DNA of 11,064 nucleotides, taken from positions 1-11,064 of the forward strand of contig JAXSMZ010000033.1 of NCBI GenBank assembly GCA_037924335.1, written 5' to 3'. Shown piece after piece: positions 1 through 11,064 of this stretch (position 1 is the first letter of the stretch; each line of letters starts with the position of its first letter). Below the pieces are notes generated by a model. It saw nothing but the letters and a program-made list of their open reading frames with translations. It was not told the DNA's origin and did not search any database. This stretch comes from Aquificaceae bacterium. Lineage in GTDB: Bacteria > Aquificota > Aquificia > Aquificales > Aquificaceae. Both the position numbers and the translations under genes were made by a program.

Positions 1-750
1 CTGTGCTTTTGTGGCATCACCTTGAACAGAGGATATTCCCTTTGAAAGCTCAGAGGGCAACACCCTTATCCCAAATATTTCCCTTGCTGGTATACCAGAC
101 GCTCTACATAGTGCAACAAAGAGAGAACTTATGTCCGTACACTTTCCGCCAAAATATCCGCTTTCCAGCATACTCTTCACGTCTCCAACACCACAACCCA
201 AAACTTTTGGGTCTCTAAAGGTGTTTTCTACAACCCAGTTATATATTGCCCTCGCTTTTTCTAAGTCTGTCTCGGCTCCTTTTGTTATTTTATCTGCGTA
301 TTCCTTGACTATACCATCTGTCTGTATATGTTCTGTTGGTTTAAGATAAAGAGCCACATCCTCTGGTATTCTTCTATTATTAGCAGGTATATTTTTCCAA
401 TCTATCCTATCTCTATCCCAAATTTCTACATGGAAGCTAACCTCTGCAAAGTTTCTTTCTGAACCGCCCTGAAATTCTAAATACAGAATAGGTGCTTTAT
501 AAGTGTTTTCCTCTGTCATAAGAATTCTGGAAGCACTGCTCCTTACTTCCACATTAACGAGTCTCTGATAGGAGGTGTTCATAGGAACTGGAATCCATAA
601 CCTAACGAGGTCTTTATAGGGTAATTCCGTGGAGTAGGTCAACTTCAACGCTTTTTTGTTTTGTGATGTCTTGCCTAAAACAGGACTGATGGGCGTAGCC
701 ATAAGTGTAATTCCACACACTGCTCCCTTAAGAAGCGTTCTTCTATCCAT
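1..750 (-). CDS. Tat-exported transglutaminase-like (Cys protease fold) protein, 5' part; continues beyond the window start
   Basis: Manual translation from ATG at 750 is open to position 1: MDRRTLLKGAVCGITLMATPISPVLG...LWIPVP...EKARAIYNWVVENTFRDPKVLGCGVGDVKSMLESGYFGGKCTDISSLFVALCRASGIPAREIFGIRV...DATKAQ. Twin-arginine motif DRRTLLK; transglutaminase core G-K-C-x-D...ALCRAxGIPAR with the Cys codon at 139-141; SD AAGGAGG at 757-763 (minus). Confidence 0.9.
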   Translation of the reverse strand, partial: MDRRTLLKGAVCGITLMATPISPVLGKTSQNKKALKLTYSTELPYKDLVRLWIPVPMNTSYQRLVNVEVRSSASRILMTEENTYKAPILYLEFQGGSERNFAEVSFHVEIWDRDRIDWKNIPANNRRIPEDVALYLKPTEHIQTDGIVKEYADKITKGAETDLEKARAIYNWVVENTFRDPKVLGCGVGDVKSMLESGYFGGKCTDISSLFVALCRASGIPAREIFGIRVLPSELSKGISSVQGDATKAQ

Positions 751-787
751 GGTTAACCTCCTTTAGTTTTTGGTTTCATGGCTTACT

Positions 788-816
788 AATATAGAGCGGG
801 TACAAAAACGTGTCAT
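788..816 (-). promoter_or_regulatory. Putative sigma70 promoter of the transglutaminase-like gene
   Basis: Minus strand reads ATGACA (816-811), 17 nt spacer, TATATT (793-788). Confidence 0.55.
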
Positions 817-857
817 TAGATTTATTCAAACAATTCTTAAAAAACTCTTTGAAAATT

Positions 858-872
858 TGTAACTTTGTTACA
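858..872. promoter_or_regulatory. Palindrome, possible transcription-factor site
   Basis: TGTAAC-TTT-GTTACA perfect inverted repeat in the divergent intergenic region. Confidence 0.35.
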
Positions 873-910
873 GACAATAGAAAGCAGACATTTCATAGTT
901 TAAACAAAAC

Positions 911-1494
911 GGGACTGTCTCATCCATTGTGTAAAAAAATACAAACGCTCCAATAACCCTAACTCCAGAAATGGCTCATGCGAAAAAACCATCAACACAC
1001 CATCAGGACAGGTCAAAGTCTCTATACCAAGAGATAGACTATCTGAATTTGAACCAACGCTTGTCCCAAAAGGTGAAAAAGTCTTGCTTACTATACTCCA
1101 AGGGTCTATCCACAAGAGATATTCAAGATATCCTTGAAGACATCTATAGATACTTGACTTTTGGCTTGCAAGACAAGAAAGTGCCAGTTTTTGGGTAAGT
1201 GTTCTGAATGACCTCAAGGCAAGAGGAGTAGAGGACATATGAGCGACCATCAGAAGTGTTTGGTGCATAAGGTAAGGAACAGTCTCAAATTACAAGTATC
1301 CGTATGAGATAAAGAGGATGCTTGCGACGACTAACTTTGTGTAAACAGCAAGATAAGGAAGGTGATATACGGCAAGAGGATATTTCCTACAGATGAAGCT
1401 TTACTGAAAGTGTGTTATGGGGTAGCGATGGACTTAGAGGAGAAGGGTAGATTATGAGGTATGGTAGAATTTACACAAATTTTGAAACAGTCCC
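911..1494 (+). mobile_element. IS256-family element, internally deleted and non-autonomous (584 bp)
   Basis: 25-bp terminal inverted repeats GGGACTGTCTCATCCATTGTGTAAA (911-935) and TTTACACAAATTTTGAAACAGTCCC (1470-1494), 20/25 matching, enclose IS256 transposase fragments. No clear target-site duplication. Confidence 0.92.
937..1457 (+). pseudogene. IS256-family (Mutator-type DDE) transposase remnant
   Basis: Collinear fragments in shifting frames: NSRNGSCEKTINTPSGQVKVSIPRDRLSEFEPTLVPK (from 961); LYSKGLSTRDIQDILEDIY; ILDFWLARQESASFWVSVLNDLKARGVEDI* (1150-1242); HQKCLVHKVRNSLK (1248-1289); YPYEIKRMLATTNFV* (1297-1344); NSKIRKVIYGKRIFPTDEALLKVCY (from 1344). Confidence 0.92.
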
Positions 1495-1510
1495 AAAAGG
1501 AGGAAAAACC

Positions 1511-1720
1511 ATGGTTTTGGAACTTACAGAAGACCTAAAAACTGGTGTAGAAGAAATGGACAAGGACCACCAAATGCTTGTGGACTATCTCAACGAGGTC
1601 TATGCACTTTAAGTGGGAGGTGGAGATGAAGAAGCCTTTGCTTGGGGATGGCTTGCGGGGCATATAGGAAAGGTAGACAAAAAATACGGAGAGCATGCAA
1701 AAGAAAAGGGTTTGATATAA
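1511..1720 (+). pseudogene. Bacteriohemerythrin pseudogene (in-frame stop and central deletion)
   Basis: SD AAGGAGG at 1497-1503. MVLELTEDLKTGVEEMDKDHQMLVDYLNEVYAL, then TAA at 1610-1612, then in the same frame VGGGDEEAFAWGWLAGHIGKVDKKYGEHAKEKGLI*. Hemerythrin N-terminal (TG-x3-D-x2-H) and C-terminal (WL-x2-HI-x3-D-x2-Y) motifs are present; the central HxxxE and HxxxH ligands are absent. Confidence 0.85.
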
Positions 1721-1721
1721 T
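1713..1721 (+). promoter_or_regulatory. Extended -10 promoter element upstream of the tRNA-Arg remnant
   Basis: TGATATAAT (TGn-TATAAT) ends 10 nt before the tRNA 5' end and overlaps the hemerythrin stop codon. Confidence 0.55.
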
Positions 1722-1731
1722 ATATATGTTA

Positions 1732-1794
1732 GCCCCCGTAGCTCAGAAGGACAGAGCGCGAGATCCCTAATCTCGAGGTCGGAGGTTCAAATCC
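1732..1794 (+). pseudogene. tRNA-Arg(CCT) remnant, 3'-truncated
   Basis: GCCCCCG-TA-GCTC D-arm GAGC; anticodon stem CGAGA/TCTCG with loop TCCCTAA (CCT at 1766-1768; position 33 is C, not U); GGAGG-TTCAAAT-CC, after which pairing stops. No 3' acceptor strand (CGGGGGC expected). Confidence 0.85.
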
Positions 1795-1796
1795 CA

Positions 1797-1837
1797 TTAC
1801 CCCAGTGTTAACACATTATTAACATAATGGGTATAAA
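1797..1837 (+). promoter_or_regulatory. Pho-box-like direct repeats and -10 element upstream of phoU
   Basis: TTAACA at 1808-1813 and 1819-1824 (11-bp period), a degenerate TTACCC at 1797-1802 in the same phase, then TATAAA at 1832-1837. Resembles the TT(A/T/C)ACA repeats bound by PhoP/PhoB-type regulators. Confidence 0.6.
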
Positions 1838-1862
1838 TTTTAATGGATAAAGGAGGAGTAAA

Positions 1863-2531
1863 ATGAAACTTTTTGAAGAGCTTGAAGAGACAAAGCAGAT
1901 AGTCCTTAAGATGGCGGGTATTGTTAAATCTGCCGTAGAAAAAGCTATAGAATCGCTGAATAAACAGGATATAGAGCTTGCTGAAGATGTTATAAAGGGG
2001 GATGACCAGATAGACCAGCTTGAGGTAGAAGTGGAGAGAAGATGCATAAGGATGATAGCACTCTATCAGCCTGAGGCTATAGACCTTAGGTTTATAATGG
2101 GAATGTATAAGATGGTTTCCGACTTGGAAAGGATAGGAGATGAGGCAGAAAACATAGCCCAAAGGTCTATACTTCTTGCTCAAGAACCCCCACTTAAACC
2201 CTATGTAAACCTAACCTTGATGTCTGGTCATGTAAAGGATATGATAGAAGATTCAGTTATAAGCTTTTTTCAGAGGGACGTAGAGCTTGCCAAGAGGGTA
2301 ATAGCGAGGGATGATACCGTTGATGAGCTCTATCATCAGCTTGAGAGGGAGCTAATCACATATGTTATGGAGGACCCAAGGAACATAAAGAGGGTAATAA
2401 ACCTCTCCTTTGTTGGTAGACATCTGGAGAGGATGGCAGACCATTCAGAAAACATAGCCGAAATGGCGGTTTACTGGTCGGAAGGTGAAGTTATAAAGCA
2501 TCAGCACATAAAGGATAAGGGTATGGTGTGA
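1863..2531 (+). CDS. phoU: Phosphate signalling complex protein PhoU
   Basis: Two PhoU repeats with motifs DDQIDQLE, QPEAIDLR, DLERIGDEAENIA, DDTVDELY and HLERMADHSENIAE; SD AGGAGG at 1851-1856. Confidence 0.96.
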   Translation: MKLFEELEETKQIVLKMAGIVKSAVEKAIESLNKQDIELAEDVIKGDDQIDQLEVEVERRCIRMIALYQPEAIDLRFIMGMYKMVSDLERIGDEAENIAQRSILLAQEPPLKPYVNLTLMSGHVKDMIEDSVISFFQRDVELAKRVIARDDTVDELYHQLERELITYVMEDPRNIKRVINLSFVGRHLERMADHSENIAEMAVYWSEGEVIKHQHIKDKGMV

Positions 2532-4288
2532 GGCTCTACATAGCATTTCTTGTCTTCTTTTTGCTCTTTTTGGGCATTAACATAGCCCTCCTCGATAATC
2601 TAAGAAAGATATGGTATGTGGGTTTTCCTCTCATACTTCTTACCGTAAACATAGACCTTCTTGTTTTGGTTATAGTTTTTGCCATTTTCTTTAGAAAGTT
2701 TATAAAGGCCTATTTAGCTGGTTCAAAAAGTAAGATCAGAAGAAAACTTTCAACTGCTACACTCCTGTATGTCTTTATCCCCATACTCTTCCTAAACTTC
2801 GCCACATCCTTAGTCTTGATACAGTCTACAAAGACTCTGGTGAGTTCTCAGCTGAAAGATGTTGCAGTAAAGTCTGAAAGACTGTACCAACGATTGGAGA
2901 AAAGAGAGGATGAAAGGATAAACCTATACAGAGAGTTCTTTCTCTTCCTATTGAGAAGGGGGGAAGACCCCACCATGTACACAAGAGGATTAAAGGAAGT
3001 GAAAAGTATCACTCAGGATGCAAACTGCTCGGAACGTATGGATAACAGTAATATAGTTATGTGCATTGACGGTTACAGAGTAGTGCTCGTGAGAGATAAG
3101 GAAACACTCAGCTCTATAAGTTATCTTTACGATGTTTCAAGGCAGCTCAGGAACCTGGTCAAGTCAAGGGACATAATAAGCGGTATATATGTCTATTTCC
3201 TTATTCTCATAACTCTTGTTACGCTTCTTGCTTCTGTTTGGTTTGGGAACTTGGTTGCAAGGTACATAAGCTTGCCCTTGGAAAGGCTGTCCCAAAGGGC
3301 AAAGGAGATATCAAAGGGTAACTTCTCTGTCAGCGTAAGCATTCCAGCAACGAACGATGAGTTGCAAGAACTCTCAGAATCTTTTGAGAGAATGAAAGAA
3401 GAGTTAAGGAATATGTACAGTAAGCTTAAAAGTGAGAAGAGAATGCTGGAAGAGCTTATAAACGTGCTACCAGTGGGAGTTGTTTATGTATCAAAGGATG
3501 GGAGTCTCTTAGTGAACGATACCTTCAGAAACATGTTTGGTGTACATGTCTGCAAAGAGGAGGACCTAAAAGGGATTGAAAAGAAGCAAAGCATAAGGGA
3601 GGAGCTCATCGAAAGTGCTGATGGTAAAGTCTTTATGTACGAAGACCTTGAGCCTGTTATACTATCAGAAAGGTTCAAAACTTGGCAGTATGCAGTAAAA
3701 AGAATAGCTCACGAGATAAAAAACCCTCTCACTCCGGTAAGCCTTAACTTAGAGAGAATATCTAGGCTCATCTACACTGAGCCTATGGACAGAAGTAAGA
3801 TAAAAGAGTCCATAGACCTGATACTTGGTGAGATAGAAAGGATAAAAAACATTGTAAACCAATTTAGAGACTTGTCCATAGACAGGGAAATAAAGCTCCA
3901 TGAGCTTAGCCTTCGTCAGCTTATAGAGGATGTGTCCAAGCTTTATACAGAGCTAAAAGTAAATGTGGAGGGGGATAAGAGAGTTTATGCAGACAGAAGC
4001 ATGTTAAAGGATATGTTCCTCAACCTTTTCAACAACAGCTTAGATTGGGGTGCTAAAAGCGTGAGTATAAAAATAGATGATAGCTCCTTGGAATATTTGG
4101 ACGATGGTAAAGGTATAGAAAAAGGTAAGGAGGAGATAATATTCTTTCCCTATCACTCAGACAACCCCAAAGGTATGGGGATTGGATTAGCCGTAGTCAA
4201 ACATATAGTCCATGTGCACGGGTGGAATATAAAGGCTCTTCATGATGAAAGGGGTTTTTATCTTATCGTAGAGTTCAAGTCTTCGTAA
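2528..4288 (+). CDS. Membrane sensor histidine kinase, NtrY-like (TM helices, HAMP, degenerate PAS, HisKA, HATPase)
   Basis: Three N-terminal hydrophobic segments plus one before the HAMP (ISLPLERLSQRAKEISKGNF...DELQELSESFERM); H-box WQYAVKRIAHEIKNPLTP typical of NtrY; N-box NLFNNS, G1 DDGKGI, G2 GMGIGL. GTG start overlaps the phoU stop (GTGA). Confidence 0.9.
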   Translation: MRLYIAFLVFFLLFLGINIALLDNLRKIWYVGFPLILLTVNIDLLVLVIVFAIFFRKFIKAYLAGSKSKIRRKLSTATLLYVFIPILFLNFATSLVLIQSTKTLVSSQLKDVAVKSERLYQRLEKREDERINLYREFFLFLLRRGEDPTMYTRGLKEVKSITQDANCSERMDNSNIVMCIDGYRVVLVRDKETLSSISYLYDVSRQLRNLVKSRDIISGIYVYFLILITLVTLLASVWFGNLVARYISLPLERLSQRAKEISKGNFSVSVSIPATNDELQELSESFERMKEELRNMYSKLKSEKRMLEELINVLPVGVVYVSKDGSLLVNDTFRNMFGVHVCKEEDLKGIEKKQSIREELIESADGKVFMYEDLEPVILSERFKTWQYAVKRIAHEIKNPLTPVSLNLERISRLIYTEPMDRSKIKESIDLILGEIERIKNIVNQFRDLSIDREIKLHELSLRQLIEDVSKLYTELKVNVEGDKRVYADRSMLKDMFLNLFNNSLDWGAKSVSIKIDDSSLEYLDDGKGIEKGKEEIIFFPYHSDNPKGMGIGLAVVKHIVHVHGWNIKALHDERGFYLIVEFKSS

Positions 4289-4722
4289 GGAAGTATCTGA
4301 AGTAAGCGTATAAGATGGTTTTCCCACACGGTATCCAGTACTTGGGAAACTACCTCCTCCTGTTCCTCCTGAGTTAAGCCCTTAAAGCTTTCTGAGTTCA
4401 CACCCTTCTCGTGAAGGAGAAGAGGTATGAAAAGCTTTCCTATAGCGTAAAAGATAAAGCACAGCTCTATGTCCGAAAGCCAAGAGAAAGCATTATAGGT
4501 CTTGTAGGTTTTCTCACAGGCCCACCTTGCCCATCTTTTTACGCTTTTGTCGCTCAATCTGTGTTCCATTCCGCCTATGTACATAGAAGCCAAAGCCCTT
4601 GAAAACCTATCATCTTTTTCCTCCTCCCTTAGACTATTCCACAGTCTTTGGACTTTCGGATAGCTTTGTAAAAACTGATCCTTCCATTTAGAATACCTGA
4701 TGAACTCGGAAAAAGGCTTCAT
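4258..4722 (-). CDS. Hypothetical protein, 154 aa
   Basis: ATG coupled to the upstream stop (TGATG at 4724-4720); protein-like composition; 31-nt convergent overlap with the kinase 3' end. No motif recognised. Confidence 0.75.
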   Translation of the reverse strand: MKPFSEFIRYSKWKDQFLQSYPKVQRLWNSLREEEKDDRFSRALASMYIGGMEHRLSDKSVKRWARWACEKTYKTYNAFSWLSDIELCFIFYAIGKLFIPLLLHEKGVNSESFKGLTQEEQEEVVSQVLDTVWENHLIRLLQILPYEDLNSTIR

Positions 4723-5291
4723 CAGCCGCTCTCTTCAGACCTTTCATACTCGGGACAGTCTAACGTTGTAAGGTCTACGTCTGGAATGTTCTCTTCAACT
4801 GTGCTGTAATAACCACAAACAAAGCAATCTATCGCCACGGCATAACCTAGATGAGCATGCCCCACATCCCACCCACAGAGCGGGCACTCTCCCTCACCAG
4901 CTTTTAAAACATCCAGGAGTCTGTTGCCGTTCTTCAAAGAGTTCTGAATCCTCTTTACCCTATCTACTGCTTTTTTAACTTCATCGCTGTTCCATTCAGC
5001 CCCACAGTTTAAACACCTGTACTCTGCGTAGCTTCCCTCTTGGAGAAGTTTCAGAACCTTGTTGGAACCACACCTATCATCTATACATACCTCACCTATG
5101 AGCTTCTTACCGAGCTTATCGAGAATCAATCTGAAATCTTCCCTTGTGAGCTTCATGGGTGTATCGTGAACTTGATATCCACAACACTGGCATTCAGCAC
5201 TCACTCTTGGATATGGCTCATCGTACTCACAAACCTTTAGAGAAACCCTTTTACAGTATGGGCAAAGCTCCAAATGTGTAATGCATATCAT
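4722..5291 (-). CDS. Cys-rich putative multi-zinc-ribbon protein, 189 aa
   Basis: SD GGAGGT at 5302-5297; six Cys pairs: CPYC, CQCC, CIDDRC, CLNC, CPLC, CFVC. Confidence 0.82.
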   Translation of the reverse strand: MICITHLELCPYCKRVSLKVCEYDEPYPRVSAECQCCGYQVHDTPMKLTREDFRLILDKLGKKLIGEVCIDDRCGSNKVLKLLQEGSYAEYRCLNCGAEWNSDEVKKAVDRVKRIQNSLKNGNRLLDVLKAGEGECPLCGWDVGHAHLGYAVAIDCFVCGYYSTVEENIPDVDLTTLDCPEYERSEESG

Positions 5292-5319
5292 GGGCTACCT
5301 CCAGCAAAATTAAATATAG

Positions 5320-5649
5320 TTAAAGGTCAAAAACTGTGTAGTACATCTTCCTTTTATCTTTTATGAACCAGCATTCTCTTATCTCTCCATCCGGGTATAT
5401 GTAGCATTTCCCCTTGATGGGAAGGTCGAGGTATATGTTGGCAGATGAACTCAACCTATTGCCATCTCCGTAGATCTCAATGACCTTGTTCCTCTTGATA
5501 GCTAACTCTATGTTTTTGAAGATAAAAGCCCTAAGGAGCTCCTTATCACTGAAGAACTTCCTTTGCAAAAGGGGTATGACGCTCAAAGTGAGCAAGGAAG
5601 CTATCGTGATCACGATTATAAGCTCAATTAAAGTAAAACCCCTCATCAT
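5320..5649 (-). CDS. Prepilin-type N-terminal cleavage/methylation protein (minor pilin or pseudopilin)
   Basis: (M)MRG/FTLIELIIVITIASLL class III signal with Glu at +5. Start more likely ATG 5649 or 5646 than the TTG at 5661. Confidence 0.85.
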   Translation of the reverse strand: MMRGFTLIELIIVITIASLLTLSVIPLLQRKFFSDKELLRAFIFKNIELAIKRNKVIEIYGDGNRLSSSANIYLDLPIKGKCYIYPDGEIRECWFIKDKRKMYYTVFDL

Positions 5650-5652
5650 GCC

Positions 5653-5701
5653 ATTATACAACAGTTCATCAACTTTTCATAAAACTGGTGTATAATTATA
5701 C
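5653..5701. promoter_or_regulatory. Divergent promoter region with inverted repeat
   Basis: ATTATACAACAGTT (5653-5666) and AACTGGTGTATAAT (5683-5696) match 13/14 as an inverted repeat; each arm ends in an outward-facing TATAAT. Confidence 0.6.
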
Positions 5702-5725
5702 CAAACTCTGAAGGAGGTAAAAAGA

Positions 5726-6022
5726 ATGAGAAGACTGATGCTTCTTATGGTTGCCGGAATTGTAAGCTTTACCTTTGCAAGCGAGCAGCTGGCAAAGCAG
5801 AAAGGCTGTATGGCATGCCACGACCTAAAAGCAAAGAAGGTAGGACCTGCCTTTGCAGATGTTGCTAAGAAGTACGCAGGAAAGAAAGATGCAGTGGATT
5901 ATTTGGCTGGAAAGATCAAGAAAGGTGGTTCTGGTGTTTGGGGATCTGTTCCAATGCCTCCGCAGAACGTGAGCGATGCTGAAGCAAAGCAGCTTGCTCA
6001 GTGGGTTCTTTCTGTGAAGTAA
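5726..6022 (+). CDS. Cytochrome c552 (class I, c551/c552 family) with signal peptide
   Basis: Sec signal ending TFA; heme motif CMACH; KKVGPA; axial Met in WGSVPMPPQ; SD AAGGAGGT at 5711-5718. Mature part nearly identical to H. thermophilus c552 as I recall it. Confidence 0.97.
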   Translation: MRRLMLLMVAGIVSFTFASEQLAKQKGCMACHDLKAKKVGPAFADVAKKYAGKKDAVDYLAGKIKKGGSGVWGSVPMPPQNVSDAEAKQLAQWVLSVK

Positions 6023-6029
6023 AACCAAA

Positions 6030-6051
6030 GGGGCCTTAGGCCCCCTCTTCT
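6030..6051 (+). terminator. GC-rich hairpin, probable intrinsic terminator between convergent genes
   Basis: GGGGCC-TTA-GGCCCC (6030-6044) followed by CTCTTCT; A-rich on the upstream side; the loop is the stop codon of the convergent ORF. Confidence 0.6.
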
Positions 6052-6380
6052 ATAGGATTGCACCTATTTATATTTCCAAAGCATTCAGGACAAAGGTCAA
6101 AAAAGACTAAAAGGCCAAGCCCACCGAGCATCATGTTAACCTGTGTTATAACAAGGTTCTCTTGCCTTTCCGGGAGTACCTGATACCTTTCCAAGGTCAA
6201 ACCGCATAGAGTTTTTCCTTCCGAATCTCCAAGCCTGTGAAACTGAAACACAAGCCTCTTAGTTCTCCTACACTTCATCCACTTGGGGTTCAAATTTAAA
6301 AGTACAAAGTTTATCTGAGCATCTTTATTAATAAGCTCTGCCCTTTGTAGCAGGCGTTCGAACTTTTCTCTTTCTGCCAT
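6036..6380 (-). CDS. Hypothetical protein with possible Zn-binding motif
   Basis: ORF fills the gap between c552 and the nik promoter; ATG at 6380 (ORF track starts at TTG 6389); FH-x9-LCG and CPEC motifs. Confidence 0.65.
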   Translation of the reverse strand: MAEREKFERLLQRAELINKDAQINFVLLNLNPKWMKCRRTKRLVFQFHRLGDSEGKTLCGLTLERYQVLPERQENLVITQVNMMLGGLGLLVFFDLCPECFGNINRCNPIEEGA

Positions 6381-6433
6381 GGATATCAAATATTAGGACT
6401 TTAATAGGATGTTAATATATGATTGATATCATA

Positions 6434-6461
6434 TTGATAATGAACAAACATTCATTAATAT
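6434..6461 (+). promoter_or_regulatory. Putative sigma70 promoter of the metal uptake operon
   Basis: TTGATA (6434-6439), 16 nt, TAATAT (6456-6461). The region is very AT-rich, so other registers are possible. Confidence 0.4.
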
Positions 6462-6486
6462 TATTTTTGTTTAAAAAATAATATTA
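6456..6486. promoter_or_regulatory. NikR-type operator palindrome
   Basis: Perfect 13-bp inverted repeat TAATATTATTTTT-gttta-AAAAATAATATTA containing TATTATT-N11-AATAATA (6459-6483), which fits the Helicobacter NikR consensus TATWATT-N11-AATWATA; lies directly before the SD of the first operon gene. Confidence 0.7.
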
Positions 6487-6497
6487 GAGGTGGAAGT

Positions 6498-7181
6498 ATG
6501 AGATGGTTGATCCTGATGGTCCTTTTGCCATCTGTTGTTCTCGCCCATGAGCTCTGGTTTGAAAAGAGTGGGGATAAGATGGTGCTTTATTACGGTCATA
6601 TGGAACCCAAGTCGGGAGAAGAGCGGTTTATAAAATACAAGCCAAAGAGTGTTTTAAGAGTTTCTTGCTTTGATGCCAACGGAAGGGGCTTAGCGGTTAA
6701 GGTGGAGAAGACATATCCCCTTTCAATGCCTACCCTTTGCTCCGTATACTATGCTCTTTTTTCTACAGGATATTGGACAAAGACGGTGGAGGGTCTGAAG
6801 AATCTTTCTAAAGACGAAGTCTCAGGTTCTATAGAAAGCTGGCTTTCTTACGAGAGTGTCAAAAGGGTGGACGGCTGGACAGATGCCCTTTCAAGACCTT
6901 TGACAGAAGACATTGAGATAGTTCCTTTGGAAGATCCTTTTGGGGTAAAGGTGTACGAAAAGATAAGTCTACGCGTTTATTACAGAGGAAAGCCTGTAAA
7001 GGATGCTGTGGTTGCTTATGATGAACATCCCATAGGTACAACAGACGAGGAGGGAAGGATAAGCGTAAGGGTCAGGCACAAAGGAATCCAAAGGATAAGC
7101 ACATCCGTAAAGGAAAAGGCAGATGGAGTGAGAGCCGATTACATCATAAGATCTACAAGCCTTATCTTTGAGGTCAAATGA
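6498..7181 (+). CDS. Periplasmic DUF4198 / NikK-like nickel uptake protein
   Basis: Signal peptide ending VLA then HELW; YYGH; C-terminal IEIVPLEDP...VYYRGKP...TTDEEGRI pattern typical of DUF4198; first gene of the ECF operon. Confidence 0.8.
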   Translation: MRWLILMVLLPSVVLAHELWFEKSGDKMVLYYGHMEPKSGEERFIKYKPKSVLRVSCFDANGRGLAVKVEKTYPLSMPTLCSVYYALFSTGYWTKTVEGLKNLSKDEVSGSIESWLSYESVKRVDGWTDALSRPLTEDIEIVPLEDPFGVKVYEKISLRVYYRGKPVKDAVVAYDEHPIGTTDEEGRISVRVRHKGIQRISTSVKEKADGVRADYIIRSTSLIFEVK

Positions 7182-7588
7182 TGTTTATCTTGCTTGTGAT
7201 TATGTTGGCTTTTGCCCATGAGCTTCAGCACAGCGTACACAGGGAAGGGAAATGCTTAACGGTTAGCTTTTTCTTTCCTGACAACACCAAGTTCTCTTAC
7301 GAGAAGTACGAAGTCTACAAAGACGGTGAAAAGCTTCCCTTTCAAGTAGGTAGGACAGATGCGCTGGGAAGGGTAGTTTTCTGTCCTGGATCGAGCGGTG
7401 TTTGGAAAGTGAAAACCATGTCGGAGGACGGTCATGGCTCAGAAGTGAGCATCGACTTTGAAGGAGGGTTAGTGGAAGAAAGGGGTAAAAACCTCTTTGA
7501 GAGATATGAAAAGGTTTTTATAGGCGTTGGGATACTTCTTGGTATCTTTGGCTTTTTTGAACTCTTCATAAGGAGGTTGAGAGGATGA
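7178..7588 (+). CDS. NikL/CbiL-like membrane-anchored accessory component
   Basis: Short signal ending AFA then HEL; FQVGRTDALGRVVFxP...GVWKV...DGH; single C-terminal TM helix; ATGA overlap with the upstream gene. Confidence 0.72.
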   Translation: MMFILLVIMLAFAHELQHSVHREGKCLTVSFFFPDNTKFSYEKYEVYKDGEKLPFQVGRTDALGRVVFCPGSSGVWKVKTMSEDGHGSEVSIDFEGGLVEERGKNLFERYEKVFIGVGILLGIFGFFELFIRRLRG

Positions 7589-8610
7589 AAAGGGGATTGT
7601 TGGTAGCGATTCTTTTTGCAGTGAGCTCCTCCTTTGCTCATCATGGAGTTGCCTCTTTGGGTACTGGAGGTTTGGAGGGTCCAGGTTCTCCCCTTGAAAC
7701 CTCAAGCTCTGCAACGCTTCCAGAGGGAAAGTGGCTTTTTTACCTCAAGCTAGACCATGTAAAATGGAGAAAGTACAGCTTTTCCCAGTTCCCAGACCAA
7801 AAGGACACGTACGATTTCTGGATGTACGGAATAGGATACGGCGTGAGACCTTGGCTATCCCTTTATCTCTTCGTTCCCTACTATGTGAAGAAGGAAATAA
7901 AAGGAGGAGGAAATTACTCTTATACGAACGCAGATTTTTCAGACATGTCTTTTATGGCAGTCCTTGGGTTTAAGTACGACAAAGGTTTTAAGCTCATTCC
8001 AAAGAAGGAAAGCCTTGATGACCTTATGGACTGGCACTTCACCCTGTACGGCGGAATGTCTTTACCCACAGGAAACCCAAACAGATATGATAGGGCAAAG
8101 GACCCAAAGGGAGATTTTGAGCCCGATATGACAACTGGCTTTGGGAAACCTTCCCTAACGCTTGGCTTTACTGCAACGAAACAGATTTTAAGCTACCCAA
8201 GGTTTACCTTTGTTTTTGATACAAATTACACAAAATTCTTTGAAAACACCTACAACTACAGGAAGGATGGTTCAAAAAAGAAGTACAAGTTTGGGGATGA
8301 GTTCAGGCTAAATACGGCTGTAGCTTACAGACTGTACAAAAGCGAGGAAAAGAAATTCCGTGCTGATGCTCTTTTGGAGGCAAACTTTCAGTACAATGGG
8401 AGGGATGAAGAGGATAAAGTAAAGCTTGAGGACTCTGGAGGTAATATACTTTATGGAACTGTGGGAACGAGGCTTTATTACAAGAGCTTATCTCTTGGTG
8501 TTGGTGTAAAAGTTCCTGTGTGGAAAAAGTTAAACAGAGAACAGGAGCAGCAGGGAAGCGAAGGAAAAGAAAGGTACAGGCTGATTTTAACTCTTTCAAC
8601 GCTCTTTTAG
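7585..8610 (+). CDS. Putative outer-membrane beta-barrel transporter, 341 aa
   Basis: Signal ending SFA then HHG; many alternating aromatic/hydrophobic strands (YGIGYGV, LSLYLFVPY, GGMSLPTG, LNTAVAY, YGTVGTRLYY, LGVGVKVPV); C-terminal Phe. Resembles MetA-pathway/SphA-like barrels (inference). Confidence 0.72.
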   Translation: MKRGLLVAILFAVSSSFAHHGVASLGTGGLEGPGSPLETSSSATLPEGKWLFYLKLDHVKWRKYSFSQFPDQKDTYDFWMYGIGYGVRPWLSLYLFVPYYVKKEIKGGGNYSYTNADFSDMSFMAVLGFKYDKGFKLIPKKESLDDLMDWHFTLYGGMSLPTGNPNRYDRAKDPKGDFEPDMTTGFGKPSLTLGFTATKQILSYPRFTFVFDTNYTKFFENTYNYRKDGSKKKYKFGDEFRLNTAVAYRLYKSEEKKFRADALLEANFQYNGRDEEDKVKLEDSGGNILYGTVGTRLYYKSLSLGVGVKVPVWKKLNREQEQQGSEGKERYRLILTLSTLF

Positions 8611-8619
8611 GAGGTAAAG

Positions 8620-9255
8620 ATGCATATACCCGATGGCTTTTTGGCACCTCAGGTTTACGTTCCAGCTTACCTTTTAGACCTAAGCCTCATGTTTTATGCT
8701 CTGAAAAGCTTCAAAGAAAAGCTTAAAGAAAGAACTGTACCCTTCATAGCTTCCCTATCTGTTATGTCTTTCATACTCATGTCCATAGCCATACCTATGC
8801 CCGGTGGCACATCTGTACATGGCTTAGGCGTTGCTAGCATCTCTCTACTCTTTGGCCCCTGGACTGCTTTTGTTTGCATCTCTTTGGTTCTTTTCCTTCA
8901 GGCTTCAGTCTTTGGAGAAGGTGGTATTACAAGCTTTCCCATAAACTCACTTGGCATAGGCCTTGTAGGGAGCCTCTCATCTTACTACGTTTACAGGGTG
9001 CTGAGCAGGTTCATCGGGGAAAAGATGGCCATTTTTATATCTGGTTTCTTATCGACAGTTCTCTCAGCTCTCTTCATAGCCTTAGTGCTAGGTCTTCATC
9101 CTTATCTCTTTATAGACTCTTCTGGAAGGCCTCTTTACTTTCCCTTTAAGTTCCGTGTTGTTATTCCAGCAGTGCTTTTACCCCATATACTCGTCGGCAC
9201 AGGGGAAGGTTTGCTCACTCTGCTGGTTGTTAAGACCATAAGGAGCAGGATATGA
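8620..9255 (+). CDS. cbiM: Ni/Co ECF transporter substrate-binding component NikM/CbiM
   Basis: Hallmark N-terminus MHIPDGFL; PGGTSVH; LFLQAxxFGEGG; GEGLLT; polytopic membrane protein; SD AGGAGGT. Confidence 0.93.
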   Translation: MHIPDGFLAPQVYVPAYLLDLSLMFYALKSFKEKLKERTVPFIASLSVMSFILMSIAIPMPGGTSVHGLGVASISLLFGPWTAFVCISLVLFLQASVFGEGGITSFPINSLGIGLVGSLSSYYVYRVLSRFIGEKMAIFISGFLSTVLSALFIALVLGLHPYLFIDSSGRPLYFPFKFRVVIPAVLLPHILVGTGEGLLTLLVVKTIRSRI

Positions 9256-9815
9256 GGGATAAGCTTCTACTCCTTCTGTACGTCTTTCTCCTTTTGTTCT
9301 TATCCTCTTTAAGAGGCGTAGTAGAGCTTTTTATAATCTTGTTTCTCCTTCTTTTTACACTTTTGCTTATGCCCATAAAGAGAAAGTTAGATGTGTTAAA
9401 GACCTCCTTTCTATCATTTTTCTTTTTTAGCTCTGTTGTTTCTACTTCCTATCTTATGACAGGTTTTTGGCTAAGGGAGAATCGTTTTGACTACTTTTTG
9501 ATGATAAACCTTAGGTCTTTTGACCTTACCCTTCTGACTTTCCTTTTTCTTAGGACTATAAATCTGTACAAAGCTCTGGATTTTTCAAAAACTCTGAGCG
9601 CTTTACTCGTTATCACCATGAGCCATACAATATCCTACCGTAGACTCTTCTGGGATTTTATGGATGCTTTTAAGAGTAGAAAGATTGAAAAGCCAAGCAG
9701 GAGCACAGCTCTTACCTTTTTAAGGAGATTGTCCCTATTTTTCTTCGAAAAGTCCATAAGCATGTCTGAAGAGATGCACCAAGCCTTGAAATCCAGAGGA
9801 TTTTATCATGATTGA
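9252..9815 (+). CDS. cbiQ: ECF transporter T component NikQ/CbiQ (short form)
   Basis: Hydrophobic N-terminal half; coupling-helix Arg motifs AFKSR and ALKSRGF; located between the M and O genes with overlapping start/stop codons. Confidence 0.82.
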   Translation: MRDKLLLLLYVFLLLFLSSLRGVVELFIILFLLLFTLLLMPIKRKLDVLKTSFLSFFFFSSVVSTSYLMTGFWLRENRFDYFLMINLRSFDLTLLTFLFLRTINLYKALDFSKTLSALLVITMSHTISYRRLFWDFMDAFKSRKIEKPSRSTALTFLRRLSLFFFEKSISMSEEMHQALKSRGFYHD

Positions 9816-10563
9816 ACTAAAGGGAGTTTCTTATAGATACAAAGATAGGGAAGTCTTGAAGGATATAAACCTGAAGGTAGATGAGGGTGATAGGGTGGTT
9901 CTCCTTGGTATAAACGGCTCTGGTAAGACAACGCTCTTGAAGGTCCTAAACGCTCTTTTGTTTCCACAGAGGGGTTCTTACCTGTACAGAGGAAAGGAGA
10001 TAAGGAAGGAAAGCGTTAGATGTAAGGAGTTTAATAAATGGTTTAGGAGAGAGGTAGTTTTGCTCTTCCAGAACCCTGATGTGATGCTCTTTAATCCCAC
10101 CGTCTATGACGAGATAGCCTTTGGACTGAGACAGCTCGGTATGGATGAGAGGGAGATAAAAGAGGAGGTACTCTTTTGGAGCAATAAGTTTGGCCTTCAT
10201 CTCTACCTTGAAAGGCCTCCCTTCGAGCTGAGCGGGGGAGAAAAACAGAAGCTCTGCCTTGCATGCCTTCTCGCACTAAGGCCGAAGGTTCTGCTCCTCG
10301 ATGAGCCGACCGCCAACCTTGACCCAAAGACCGTCGGGTGGTTTATAGACCTCCTCTATGAGATAAACATCACAAGCATAATATCTACGCACAACCTAAG
10401 CTTGGCTCCAGAGTTGGGGGAAAAGCTGATAGTACTTGGTGAAAACCATACAGTAGTCTATCAGGGGAAAGCAAGGGACTTTTTGGAAGACAGGGGGCGC
10501 CTTATGGAAGCTGGACTCCTCCATAAGCACGGTCAGAAAGGCTATCACCTCCATGGCTTCTGA
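9808..10563 (+). CDS. cbiO: ECF transporter ATPase NikO/CbiO
   Basis: Walker A GINGSGKTT; Q-loop FQNPD; signature LSGGEKQ; Walker B LLLDEPT; H-loop STH; His-rich tail HKHGQKGYHLHGF. Confidence 0.93.
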   Translation: MIELKGVSYRYKDREVLKDINLKVDEGDRVVLLGINGSGKTTLLKVLNALLFPQRGSYLYRGKEIRKESVRCKEFNKWFRREVVLLFQNPDVMLFNPTVYDEIAFGLRQLGMDEREIKEEVLFWSNKFGLHLYLERPPFELSGGEKQKLCLACLLALRPKVLLLDEPTANLDPKTVGWFIDLLYEINITSIISTHNLSLAPELGEKLIVLGENHTVVYQGKARDFLEDRGRLMEAGLLHKHGQKGYHLHGF

Positions 10564-10572
10564 TATGTTCGG

Positions 10573-10601
10573 TTGAAAAGTGTTGATCTTTGATATATAA
10601 T
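10573..10601 (+). promoter_or_regulatory. sigma70 promoter of the tRNA cluster
   Basis: TTGAAA (10573-10578), 17 nt, TATAAT (10596-10601). Confidence 0.8.
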
Positions 10602-10627
10602 AAGCAAGATAGGCAGGAGTTTCTAAA

Positions 10628-10700
10628 GCTGGCGTAGCTCAGTCGGCAGAGCGCGGGATTTGTAATCCCGCGGTCGTGGGTTCAACTCCCACCGCCAGCT
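10628..10700 (+). tRNA. tRNA-Thr(TGT), CCA not encoded
   Basis: Acceptor GCTGGCG/CGCCAGC; anticodon stem CGGGA/TCCCG; TGT at 10661-10663; T-loop TTCAACT. Confidence 0.96.
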
Positions 10701-10709
10701 TAGACTTTA

Positions 10710-10796
10710 GGAGGGGTGGCCGAGCGGCCAAAGGCAGGGGACTGTAAATCCCCCGGGCTCCGCCCTACGCAGGTTCGAATCCTGCCCCCTCCACCA
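10710..10796 (+). tRNA. tRNA-Tyr(GTA), CCA encoded
   Basis: Acceptor GGAGGGG/CCCCTCC; GTA at 10744-10746; long variable arm; T-loop TTCGAAT; ends ACCA. Confidence 0.97.
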
Positions 10797-10868
10797 GCGG
10801 GCGTAGCTCAGTGGTAGAGCAGCTGCCTTCCAAGCAGCAGGTCGTGGGTTCGAGTCCCATCGCCCGCT
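10797..10868 (+). tRNA. tRNA-Gly(TCC), CCA not encoded
   Basis: Acceptor GCGGGCG/CGCCCGC; anticodon stem GCTGC/GCAGC; TCC at 10829-10831; T-loop TTCGAGT. Confidence 0.96.
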
Positions 10869-10896
10869 CTTGAAAAAATCCTATATTTTACACATT

Positions 10897-11064
10897 ATGG
10901 TGCTAAAGCTCAAGATAAGAAGGCAGGATAGGTTAGAAGAAGGTGCTTTTTATCAGACCTTTGAAGTCCCCTATGAAGAGGGTATGACCTTTCTGACGGC
11001 TTTCAACAGGATCAAAGAAAATCAGGATGAGACTTTTACCTTCCGTCACTTTTGCAGGGCCGGG
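10897..11064 (+). CDS. frdB: Fumarate reductase / succinate dehydrogenase iron-sulfur subunit, 5' part; continues beyond the window end
   Basis: Manual translation: MVLKLKIRRQDRLEEGAFYQTFEVPYEEGMTFLTAFNRIKENQDETFTFRHFCRAG, matching the SdhB/FrdB N-terminus up to the first [2Fe-2S] Cys (CRxG). frdB versus sdhB cannot be decided from this fragment. Confidence 0.85.
   Translation, partial: MVLKLKIRRQDRLEEGAFYQTFEVPYEEGMTFLTAFNRIKENQDETFTFRHFCRAG

Follow-up and report, generated by a model that had tools for sequence, protein, structure and literature searches.

A His-His-tipped COG4313-type barrel in NikKLMQO operons as a candidate TonB-independent outer-membrane route for nickel

Introduction

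How does nickel cross the outer membrane on its way to an energy-coupling factor (ECF) importer? The question is raised by an operon of an Aquificaceae bacterium (assembly GCA_037924335.1, contig JAXSMZ010000033.1, positions 1 to 11,064; hereafter the window), in which a gene for a small outer-membrane barrel lies among those of a NikKLMQO nickel importer. The original prediction, made from the letters alone, had proposed this barrel as a TonB-independent nickel channel. A 2024 survey gives TonB receptors and unspecific porins as the only outer-membrane nickel routes (PMC11247825). Because the barrel's branch has a constant His-His start and is nearly always found in nickel operons, we consider it a strong candidate for an outer-membrane nickel route without TonB. 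The barrel fold and its plug are already known; what appears to be new is the His-His clade in nickel operons.

Results

The barrel is a secreted COG4313/PF13557 protein

The open reading frame (ORF) at 7585-8610 on the forward strand encodes 341 amino acids and ends LSTLF, with a C-terminal Phe. Its 18-residue signal peptide, MKRGLLVAILFAVSSSFA, was assigned by eye from the sequence and its homologs, not by a predictor, and is followed by the mature start HHGVASLGTGGLEGPGSP (HHGVASLG), leaving 323 mature residues. In the homologs, the His pair follows a small residue that closes a hydrophobic stretch, and we therefore place the mature start where the original prediction had it; the ORF and the cleavage context thus bear out a secreted 341-residue protein with this N-terminus and a C-terminal Phe. 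The features of the barrel gene are as follows.

7585..8610, forward strand: barrel (the finding), His-His-tipped, COG4313/PF13557, 12-stranded, outer-membrane (Pfam, alignment, AlphaFold, structure matches)
7585..7638, forward strand: predicted cleavable signal peptide, 18 residues (sequence inspection; position before His-His kept in homologs)
7639..7731, forward strand: mature residues 1-31, comprising the His1-His2 tip, a Gly/Pro-rich linker and a plug segment with invariant E20 and S24 (alignment; plug overlay)
8008..8037, forward strand: conserved acidic strand 4-5 insert ESLDDLMDWH, predicted from topology to be periplasmic; candidate docking site
8065..8073, forward strand: PTG motif, common to COG4313 and FapF (P143, T144 and G145 each kept in 90% or more of the sequences; in alignment with the PTG of FapF)
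8548..8571, forward strand: clade signature QQGxEGxE in the last loop (Q304, Q305, G306, E308, G309 and E311 invariant in 108/108)

Hydrophobic and polar faces alternate along the strands. Residues 96-262 match PF13557 (32.5 bits against a gathering cut-off of 22, E 1.2e-7), and an Atlas search led to the same family, COG4313/PF13557. An AlphaFold model from 108 sequences (pLDDT 90.8) has 12 long strands by our reading of the DSSP string and matches FapF (PDB 5O65; Z 24.8, rmsd 2.7, 262 residues aligned) and Pput2725 (PDB 4RL8; Z 24.4, rmsd 2.8, 255 aligned), the next-best structural family being the autotransporters (Z 18.6). Foldseek and a second AlphaFold model both agreed with a fold of the FapF/Pput2725 type. 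By sequence, a wider profile matched FapF (E 1e-7) and 4RL8 (E 2e-4); searches of the PDB with the single sequence and with a close profile gave no meaningful match, no NCBIfam model exceeded its cut-off for the barrel or its distant relatives, and a search of plasmids gave no match. Identity to the solved COG4313-type members is 13-16%. As modeled, the protein is a 12-stranded outer-membrane member of COG4313/PF13557, and the barrel fold, for which the original prediction had proposed structure prediction and Foldseek as checks, is supported by both.

The predicted departure from TonB receptors was also corroborated. The protein gave no match to the Plug or TonB-receptor domains (PF07715, PF00593) at E 0.1, and it has 323 mature residues and 12 strands, whereas TonB-dependent receptors are about twice its size, with 22 strands. 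The N-terminal periplasmic coiled coil of FapF is absent as well, the model leaving just 31 residues ahead of strand 1.

Within these 31 residues, positions 20-31 (block pLDDT 79) superpose on the plug of 4RL8, starting at residue 2 of the latter. Residues 1-10 have a pLDDT of 41 in both models (the second run used 42 mature sequences) and are placed differently by the two. Residue 9 of model 1 aligns with FapF 88, the start of the FapF plug, and in untrimmed overlays of both models residue 1 falls, at low confidence, on the N-terminal segments of autotransporters and FadL, which we take to be lumenal. A lumen-occluding N-terminus was described in 2015 as the hallmark of COG4313, with hydrophobic cargo proposed (PMC4493636). 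Given membership of COG4313/PF13557, the lumen-plugging N-terminus is a known family trait and not a new architecture: the idea of a small barrel with its N-terminus in the lumen gained support from the fold and, for residues 20-31, from the plug overlay, and lost its novelty.

D102 is invariant, and the Asp and PTG cluster of COG4313 is kept and aligns with FapF. A related strand 4-5 insert occurs in a subgroup of homologs whose loci begin with nikM (the nikM-first subgroup); relatives that lack the His-His start have no such insert and no QQGxEGxE signature.

An invariant His-His start marks one clade

The homolog search returned 613 matches, of which 120 were listed. The main alignment (A1) holds the window protein and 107 of these 120; P0001, P0006, P0009, P0037, P0066, P0085 and seven near-duplicates were left out, as were L025 and L040 from A2 and A3. 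His1 and His2 are invariant in all 108 aligned sequences. The pair is also present in 48/49 readable genome loci, in 68/68 readable distant metagenome loci (29-52% identity) and in 50 of the 53 library representatives that cover the N-terminus, the three misses appearing frame-shifted or reading His-Arg. The predicted conservation of the His pair was thus confirmed in all the main sets (108/108, 48/49 and 68/68).

The closest named homologs are from Aquificaceae, and the homolog in the cultivated Hydrogenobacter thermophilus TK-6 (P0002) is 77% identical. In a tree of 41 proteins, one branch (support 100/99) unites 21 His-His rows with a natural Tyr-Tyr variant (L050:5983-6984), which nests inside the clade. 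The locus of this variant is the only one of 51 genome loci that lacks both nikL and nikM; nikK alone adjoins. Relatives beyond the clade (E ~1e-12) begin Asp-His, Asn-His or Cys-rich. Distant PF13557-like barrels with such starts (L071:4555-5502 and P0239-P0269), some with His-rich loops, possibly serve other metals; the neighbors of one Cys-tipped relative (genome G040) include no nik genes.

Several variants of the gene were also seen. NikL-barrel fusions of 456-568 residues (P0121, P0125, P0133 and P0145) have an internal hydrophobic stretch and a small-residue site before His-His and are probably polyproteins cut by signal peptidase, or else gene-calling artefacts. Barrels that are split or internally deleted occur in otherwise intact operons (L073:4794-5842 and L074:5340-5660), and P0009 is identical to the window protein except that 68 residues are missing.

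The barrel is a near-constant sixth gene of NikKLMQO operons

The operon runs nikK, nikL-like, barrel, nikM, nikQ-like, nikO, so that all five NikKLMQO importer genes are present (nikL below the NCBIfam cut-off, nikQ by position).

6498..7181, forward strand: nikK, periplasmic DUF4198 protein with mature His1 and His18 (PF10670, E 8.6e-17)
7178..7588, forward strand: nikL-like gene with signal peptide, mature His1 and C-terminal membrane anchor (NF058648, E 4e-11)
8620..9255, forward strand: nikM, ECF S component with Met1/His2/His67 (CbiM/NikM PF01891, E 1.1e-55)
9252..9815, forward strand: nikQ-like T component (position, hydrophobicity, same-slot homologs in 43/48 loci)
9808..10563, forward strand: nikO ATPase (PF00005; scores for the ECF ATPase and cbiO models fall short of the cut-offs)

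The nikL-like gene scores 43 bits against the 100-bit cut-off of NF058648, and its relatives share the N-terminal His; the nikQ-like gene has no Pfam or NCBIfam match. The original prediction named the two flanking genes correctly (NikL-like upstream, CbiM/NikM downstream) and overlooked the first gene of the operon, nikK, together with the NikR-type operator at 6458-6484. It had also described the barrel as translationally coupled on both sides. Upstream, the start overlaps the nikL-like stop (ATGA at 7585-7588); downstream, a 9-nt gap separates the barrel from nikM, whose ribosome site AGGAGGT overlaps the barrel stop codon. Direct coupling therefore holds on the upstream side only.

Four products of the operon, NikK, NikL, the barrel and NikM, start with an N-terminal His site. 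His1 and His18 of NikK are invariant in 42/42 sequences, and the NikK profile matches PDB 9GCB, annotated 'NikK', over its full length (E 2.8e-18). This homolog, IsDUF4198, binds nickel through His1/His18 with a Kd of 18 nM (PMC12537917). NikM coordinates nickel through Met1, His2 and His67 (PMC3945884), all three of which are present in the window NikM.

Gene context was counted in the 51 genome loci, with those that have enough flank as denominators. NikK lies upstream of the barrel in 47/47 loci and nikL accompanies it in 46/47 (once downstream); nikM directly follows it in 46/48, with nikQ in 43/48 and nikO in 42/45. Hydrogenase or hyp genes occur in 17/51 loci and nikR in 16/51. Among the 80 metagenome loci listed of 176, the usual order is nikM-K-L-barrel-Q-O, cooT lies upstream in 13, and one query for TonB receptors matched none. 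All 33 loci of this rearranged subgroup that have 1.5 kb on both sides contain nickel-linked genes, nikM in 32. Two loci, L123 and L145, have the order nikM-L-Q-O-barrel without nikK (L145 also has nikR), and a strict dependence of the barrel on nikK was therefore rejected. Linkage to nickel genes thus spans Aquificota, Betaproteobacteria, Myxococcota-type and other loci and three gene orders, and the predicted neighborhood link survives operon rearrangement. A NikM-NikK fusion (CbiM and DUF4198) in which an internal segment resembling a signal peptide precedes the NikK His was also found (L103:3014-4429).

We then surveyed the 148 genomes of the order. Of these, 45 had a barrel match, or 44 after dropping G040 (E 1.4e-6); 60 had nikM and 46 nikK. 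NikK and nikM were each present in 42 of the 44 barrel genomes, and none of the 18 nikM genomes without the barrel had nikK (0/18). Four genomes had nikK and no barrel, three being cut by contig ends and the fourth giving a weak match. In all 13 genomes inspected of these 18, and in G124, nikM is followed by an ORF of 94-101 residues (PDGLE/NikN in both of two checked) and then by nikQ. In G124, a nikK-nikL-barrel module lies 230 kb from nikMNQO, beside hypA and hypF. From this layout and the co-segregation with nikK and nikL, we conclude that the barrel belongs to a K-L-barrel capture module.

The host genome (99.9% complete) has [NiFe]-hydrogenase and hyp genes, as the predicted hydrogenase-bearing lifestyle had implied. 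It also has nikR, on a different contig (C3) and 62% identical to that of a relative, a single PF13557 gene and no match to NiCoT (PF03824).

Promoter, regulation and surroundings

The region upstream of nikK contains three overlapping or adjoining elements.

6434..6461, forward strand: sigma70-like promoter TTGATA-16-TAATAT (9/12 consensus matches)
6438..6457, no strand assigned: second palindrome TAATGAAC-4-ATTCATTA in the promoter spacer (sequence pattern)
6458..6484, no strand assigned: NikR-type operator ATATTAT-N13-ATAATAT, overlapping the -10 box (relaxed pattern)

The promoter pattern is weak alone (11 sites versus 6.1 in shuffles); a similar spacing is found 5' of nikK in relatives. 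Exact matches to the relaxed NikR pattern occur upstream of nikK in 16/48 regions, or 26 with one mismatch, compared with 0/368 control upstream regions and 0.08 expected in shuffles. The pattern has five matches in the host genome, the other four preceding no evident nickel genes. A NikR-type palindrome overlaps the promoter and the genome carries nikR, which makes the operon a predicted member of the NikR regulon. The second palindrome occurs once in the genome in its ATGAAY-n4/5-RTTCAT form and, in a looser form, 5' of nikK in 9/48 regions, all from Aquificales. Its regulator is possibly the product of the TetR gene often found nearby, and a second regulator linking nickel uptake to hydrogenase genes is possible.

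In the nikM-first subgroup, a terminator-like leader (GCCACGAAGG...CGTGGC and a U-tract) lies upstream of nikM; it was seen in 19/162 loci (for example L075:2855-2899, L102:3019-3060, and L103:2038-2078 and 2865-2911). A second copy precedes DUF3842-cooT in L103, and L139 also has a second copy. The outer stem is nearly invariant and the inner stem covaries (6/16 pairs changed on both sides). The leader has no Rfam match at gathering score, and weak E-value matches on two leaders were judged to be chance. In loci without NikR boxes, it may be a nickel-linked attenuator. Thirty-three related loci, 30 of which belong to the distant metagenome set, gave no riboswitch match, and an Rfam scan of the window found tRNAs only.

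Immediately past nikO lies a cluster of tRNA-Thr, -Tyr and -Gly (10627-10869), then a 2Fe-2S (Fer2_3) gene that runs off the contig end. The flanks of the nik operon differ among relatives, which is consistent with a mobile module. Regions 1-750, 1863-4288 and 5320-6022 of the window hold ordinary neighbors: a transglutaminase-like protein, phoU with a sensor kinase, a prepilin-motif gene and cytochrome c.

Discussion

Comparison with known systems

Of the four findings that the original prediction had named as refuting it, three did not turn up: the predicted fold is a barrel, the homologs are linked to nickel genes and the His pair is conserved. The fourth, a characterized unrelated function, applies through TcpY, SphA and FapF at the level of the family and not of the clade, which shares 13-16% identity with the solved members. 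Pput2725 (4RL8), TcpY and SphA (13-14% identity) differ from the clade in lacking its 19 extra, His-His-tipped N-terminal residues, its acidic strand 4-5 insert and its QQGxEGxE loop, and they are found with genes of aromatic or lipid catabolism, whereas the clade is found in nickel operons. FapF (16% identity) has the same fold, with the plug region aligned from model residue 9; the barrel, unlike FapF, has no coiled coil and no fap genes were seen with it, and we infer import instead of export.

The NikKLMQO importers described earlier have the same five genes and a NikR-type operator, with no outer-membrane member named in the available text (PMC545781, PMC2667541); here the barrel is a near-constant sixth gene. 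TonB-dependent nickel receptors (FrpB4, FecA3, CntO and NikH; PMC11247825) share the outer-membrane nickel step and are the commonest DUF4198 neighbors, but they have a folded plug domain and are energized, whereas the barrel has no Plug or TonB-receptor Pfam match. The nik loci of Caldithrix likewise carry TonB receptors (PMC5317091). Such receptors, the only ones named in the original prediction, are not the sole precedent: HopV and HopW of H. pylori are NikR-repressed, His-lined barrels that are not TonB receptors, with indirect evidence for nickel traffic (PMC5385501). These are Helicobacter-specific Hop proteins, which the available text does not place in an ECF operon. In the signal-strapped His1 metalloproteins (IsDUF4198 9GCB and the anglerases), an N-terminal His exposed by cleavage likewise chelates metal and is proposed to feed a transporter; unlike the barrel, these are either soluble domains with a beta-sandwich fold or fusions with inner-membrane permeases (PMC12537917). 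Our literature search found no description of the His-His clade; most subscription journals, and supplements other than that of PMC12537917, lay outside it.

Proposed mechanism

On balance, we favor the view that the barrel conducts nickel passively and that its His-His tip captures the metal and feeds a periplasmic NikK-NikL-NikM relay. The barrel would then be the outer-membrane step of the NikKLMQO importer, with a lumen that, by family homology, is partly plugged by its own N-terminal segment. Signal cleavage would free an amine beside His1-His2, a natural nickel-chelating end. Ni2+ or a small nickel complex would diffuse into the barrel, be caught by the tip on its flexible Gly/Pro-rich tether and, on the periplasmic side, be given up to NikK (His1/His18), which would serve as a high-affinity sink. 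Membrane-anchored NikL (His1) and then NikM (Met1/His2/His67) would receive it next, NikQO completing the import with ATP. The periplasmic sink would drive the flux without TonB energy, and NikR, for which an operator is seen, would shut the operon off at sufficient nickel. In the plug of FapF, a closed hairpin, the N-terminus returns to the periplasm (PMC5557850), so by analogy the His-His tip may be the exit or hand-off site, as an alternative to the selective gate in the lumen that the original prediction proposed.

Beside DUF4198 genes, the barrel would take the slot usually held by TonB receptors. In the neighbor table of PMC12537917, which covers 200 DUF4198 entries, TonB receptors rank first (counts of 121 and 29) and Phenol_MetA_deg is counted 8 times; the words 'phenol', 'barrel' and 'outer membrane' each occur 0 times in the main text.

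A bolder version, which we put forward only tentatively and regard as rather doubtful, is a dedicated, energy-independent channel in which the tethered His-His pair ferries nickel through the plug and passes it straight on to NikK, within a relay of four N-terminal His sites (barrel, NikK, NikL and NikM) spanning the envelope. On this reading, the clade would represent a single branch within a larger set of metal-tipped COG4313 proteins, as suggested by the relatives that begin Asp-His, Asn-His or Cys-rich.

Several points weigh against a nickel channel. The His-His tip falls in the low-confidence part of the models (residues 1-10). The invariant residues that face the lumen include 6 basic and 4 acidic ones and form no His/Cys/Met ladder, which does not suggest an obvious path for cations; these charges would fit a chelate route or a net of salt bridges pinning the plug as well as they fit passage of an ion. 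Hydrophilic solutes pass poorly through Pput2725, and the characterized COG4313 members carry hydrophobic molecules or export a polypeptide (PMC4493636). DUF4198 proteins also serve in responses to zinc or iron, and uptake can proceed without one of them (PMC12663993). The barrel itself is dispensable, as the 18 nikM genomes without it show. It is broken in G107, G069 and G002, with nikK, nikL and nikM intact in G107 and G069; the barrel is therefore not essential everywhere, or these are assembly errors. The counted genomes are related and not independent samples, and the host genome has two TonB receptors and three TonB-domain matches, possible nickel importers. As for NikR, the consensus of PMC545781 was widened after the sites had been seen, and the controls were chosen without matching A+T content. 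NikR boxes are also rare in the distant subgroup (2/31 exact; 4/31 at no more than one mismatch versus 2.25 in shuffles), for which NikR control as a general trait was rejected.

Alternative explanations

The barrel might instead be a COG4313-like channel for an amphipathic nickel chelate or metallophore, the His pair stripping or steadying the metal. We consider this unlikely, although the family offers a precedent for amphipathic cargo and for bound detergent (PMC4493636), the clade retains the PTG and Asp motifs assigned to a proposed lateral gate, and several invariant Arg/Lys face the lumen. The neighbor clusters of the 51 loci (read by eye and mostly unannotated) contain no recurrent metallophore synthesis gene, and at the NikM site further down the route it is the bare ion that binds (PMC3945884).

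A second possibility, which we judge improbable, is a closed barrel that anchors a metal-holding His-His tip at the periplasmic face and buffers nickel entering through general porins. The closed FapF hairpin, the alignment of residue 9 with the start of that plug in model 1, and the DUF4198 protein Zcp, which buffers zinc without importing it (PMC12663993), are in line with this arrangement. On the other hand, the invariant polar residues in the lumen and the last loop exceed what an anchor needs. The low-confidence untrimmed overlays, moreover, put residue 1 on presumably lumenal segments.

Cobalt as the cargo, or nickel and cobalt alike, is quite improbable. The host genome has two tetrapyrrole methylase matches only, too few for de novo B12 synthesis, no cobalamin riboswitch was found in the window or the 33 related loci, and the neighbors are nikR, hydrogenase, hyp and cooT genes. 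In favor of cobalt are the rarity of NikR boxes in the distant subgroup, the acceptance of Co2+ by NikM (PMC3945884) and the service of some NikKMLQO operons in cobalt uptake (PMC2667541).

We think it very improbable that the barrel is a FapF-like export pore secreting NikK or a similar His-tipped protein to scavenge outside nickel. FapF is a top structural match, and the barrel co-segregates with nikK and nikL, not nikM; but the L123 and L145 barrels have no nikK beside them, NikL is membrane-anchored, the FapF-type coiled coil is missing, and Zcp, a DUF4198 protein, resides in the periplasm without exposure at the cell surface (PMC12663993). Finally, we give hardly any credence to an ordinary COG4313 hydrophobe channel present as an operon bystander: the Pfam name and the characterized family members suggest it, against linkage across phyla and three gene orders, the invariant His pair and the NikL fusions.

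Significance

The fold and the importer are both known, and the advance is therefore a new function, at candidate strength, for a known scaffold. For passage of nickel through the outer membrane, the His-His clade provides a named, small, single-gene candidate, with His1 and His2 as a sharp mutational target, and its carriers are hydrogen-oxidizing thermophiles and Thiobacillus- and Hydrogenophilus-type bacteria. If the nickel channel reading is true, the misleading 'phenol degradation' label would be corrected on at least several hundred proteins (613 matches), and COG4313 would extend from hydrophobic cargo and amyloid export to metal uptake.

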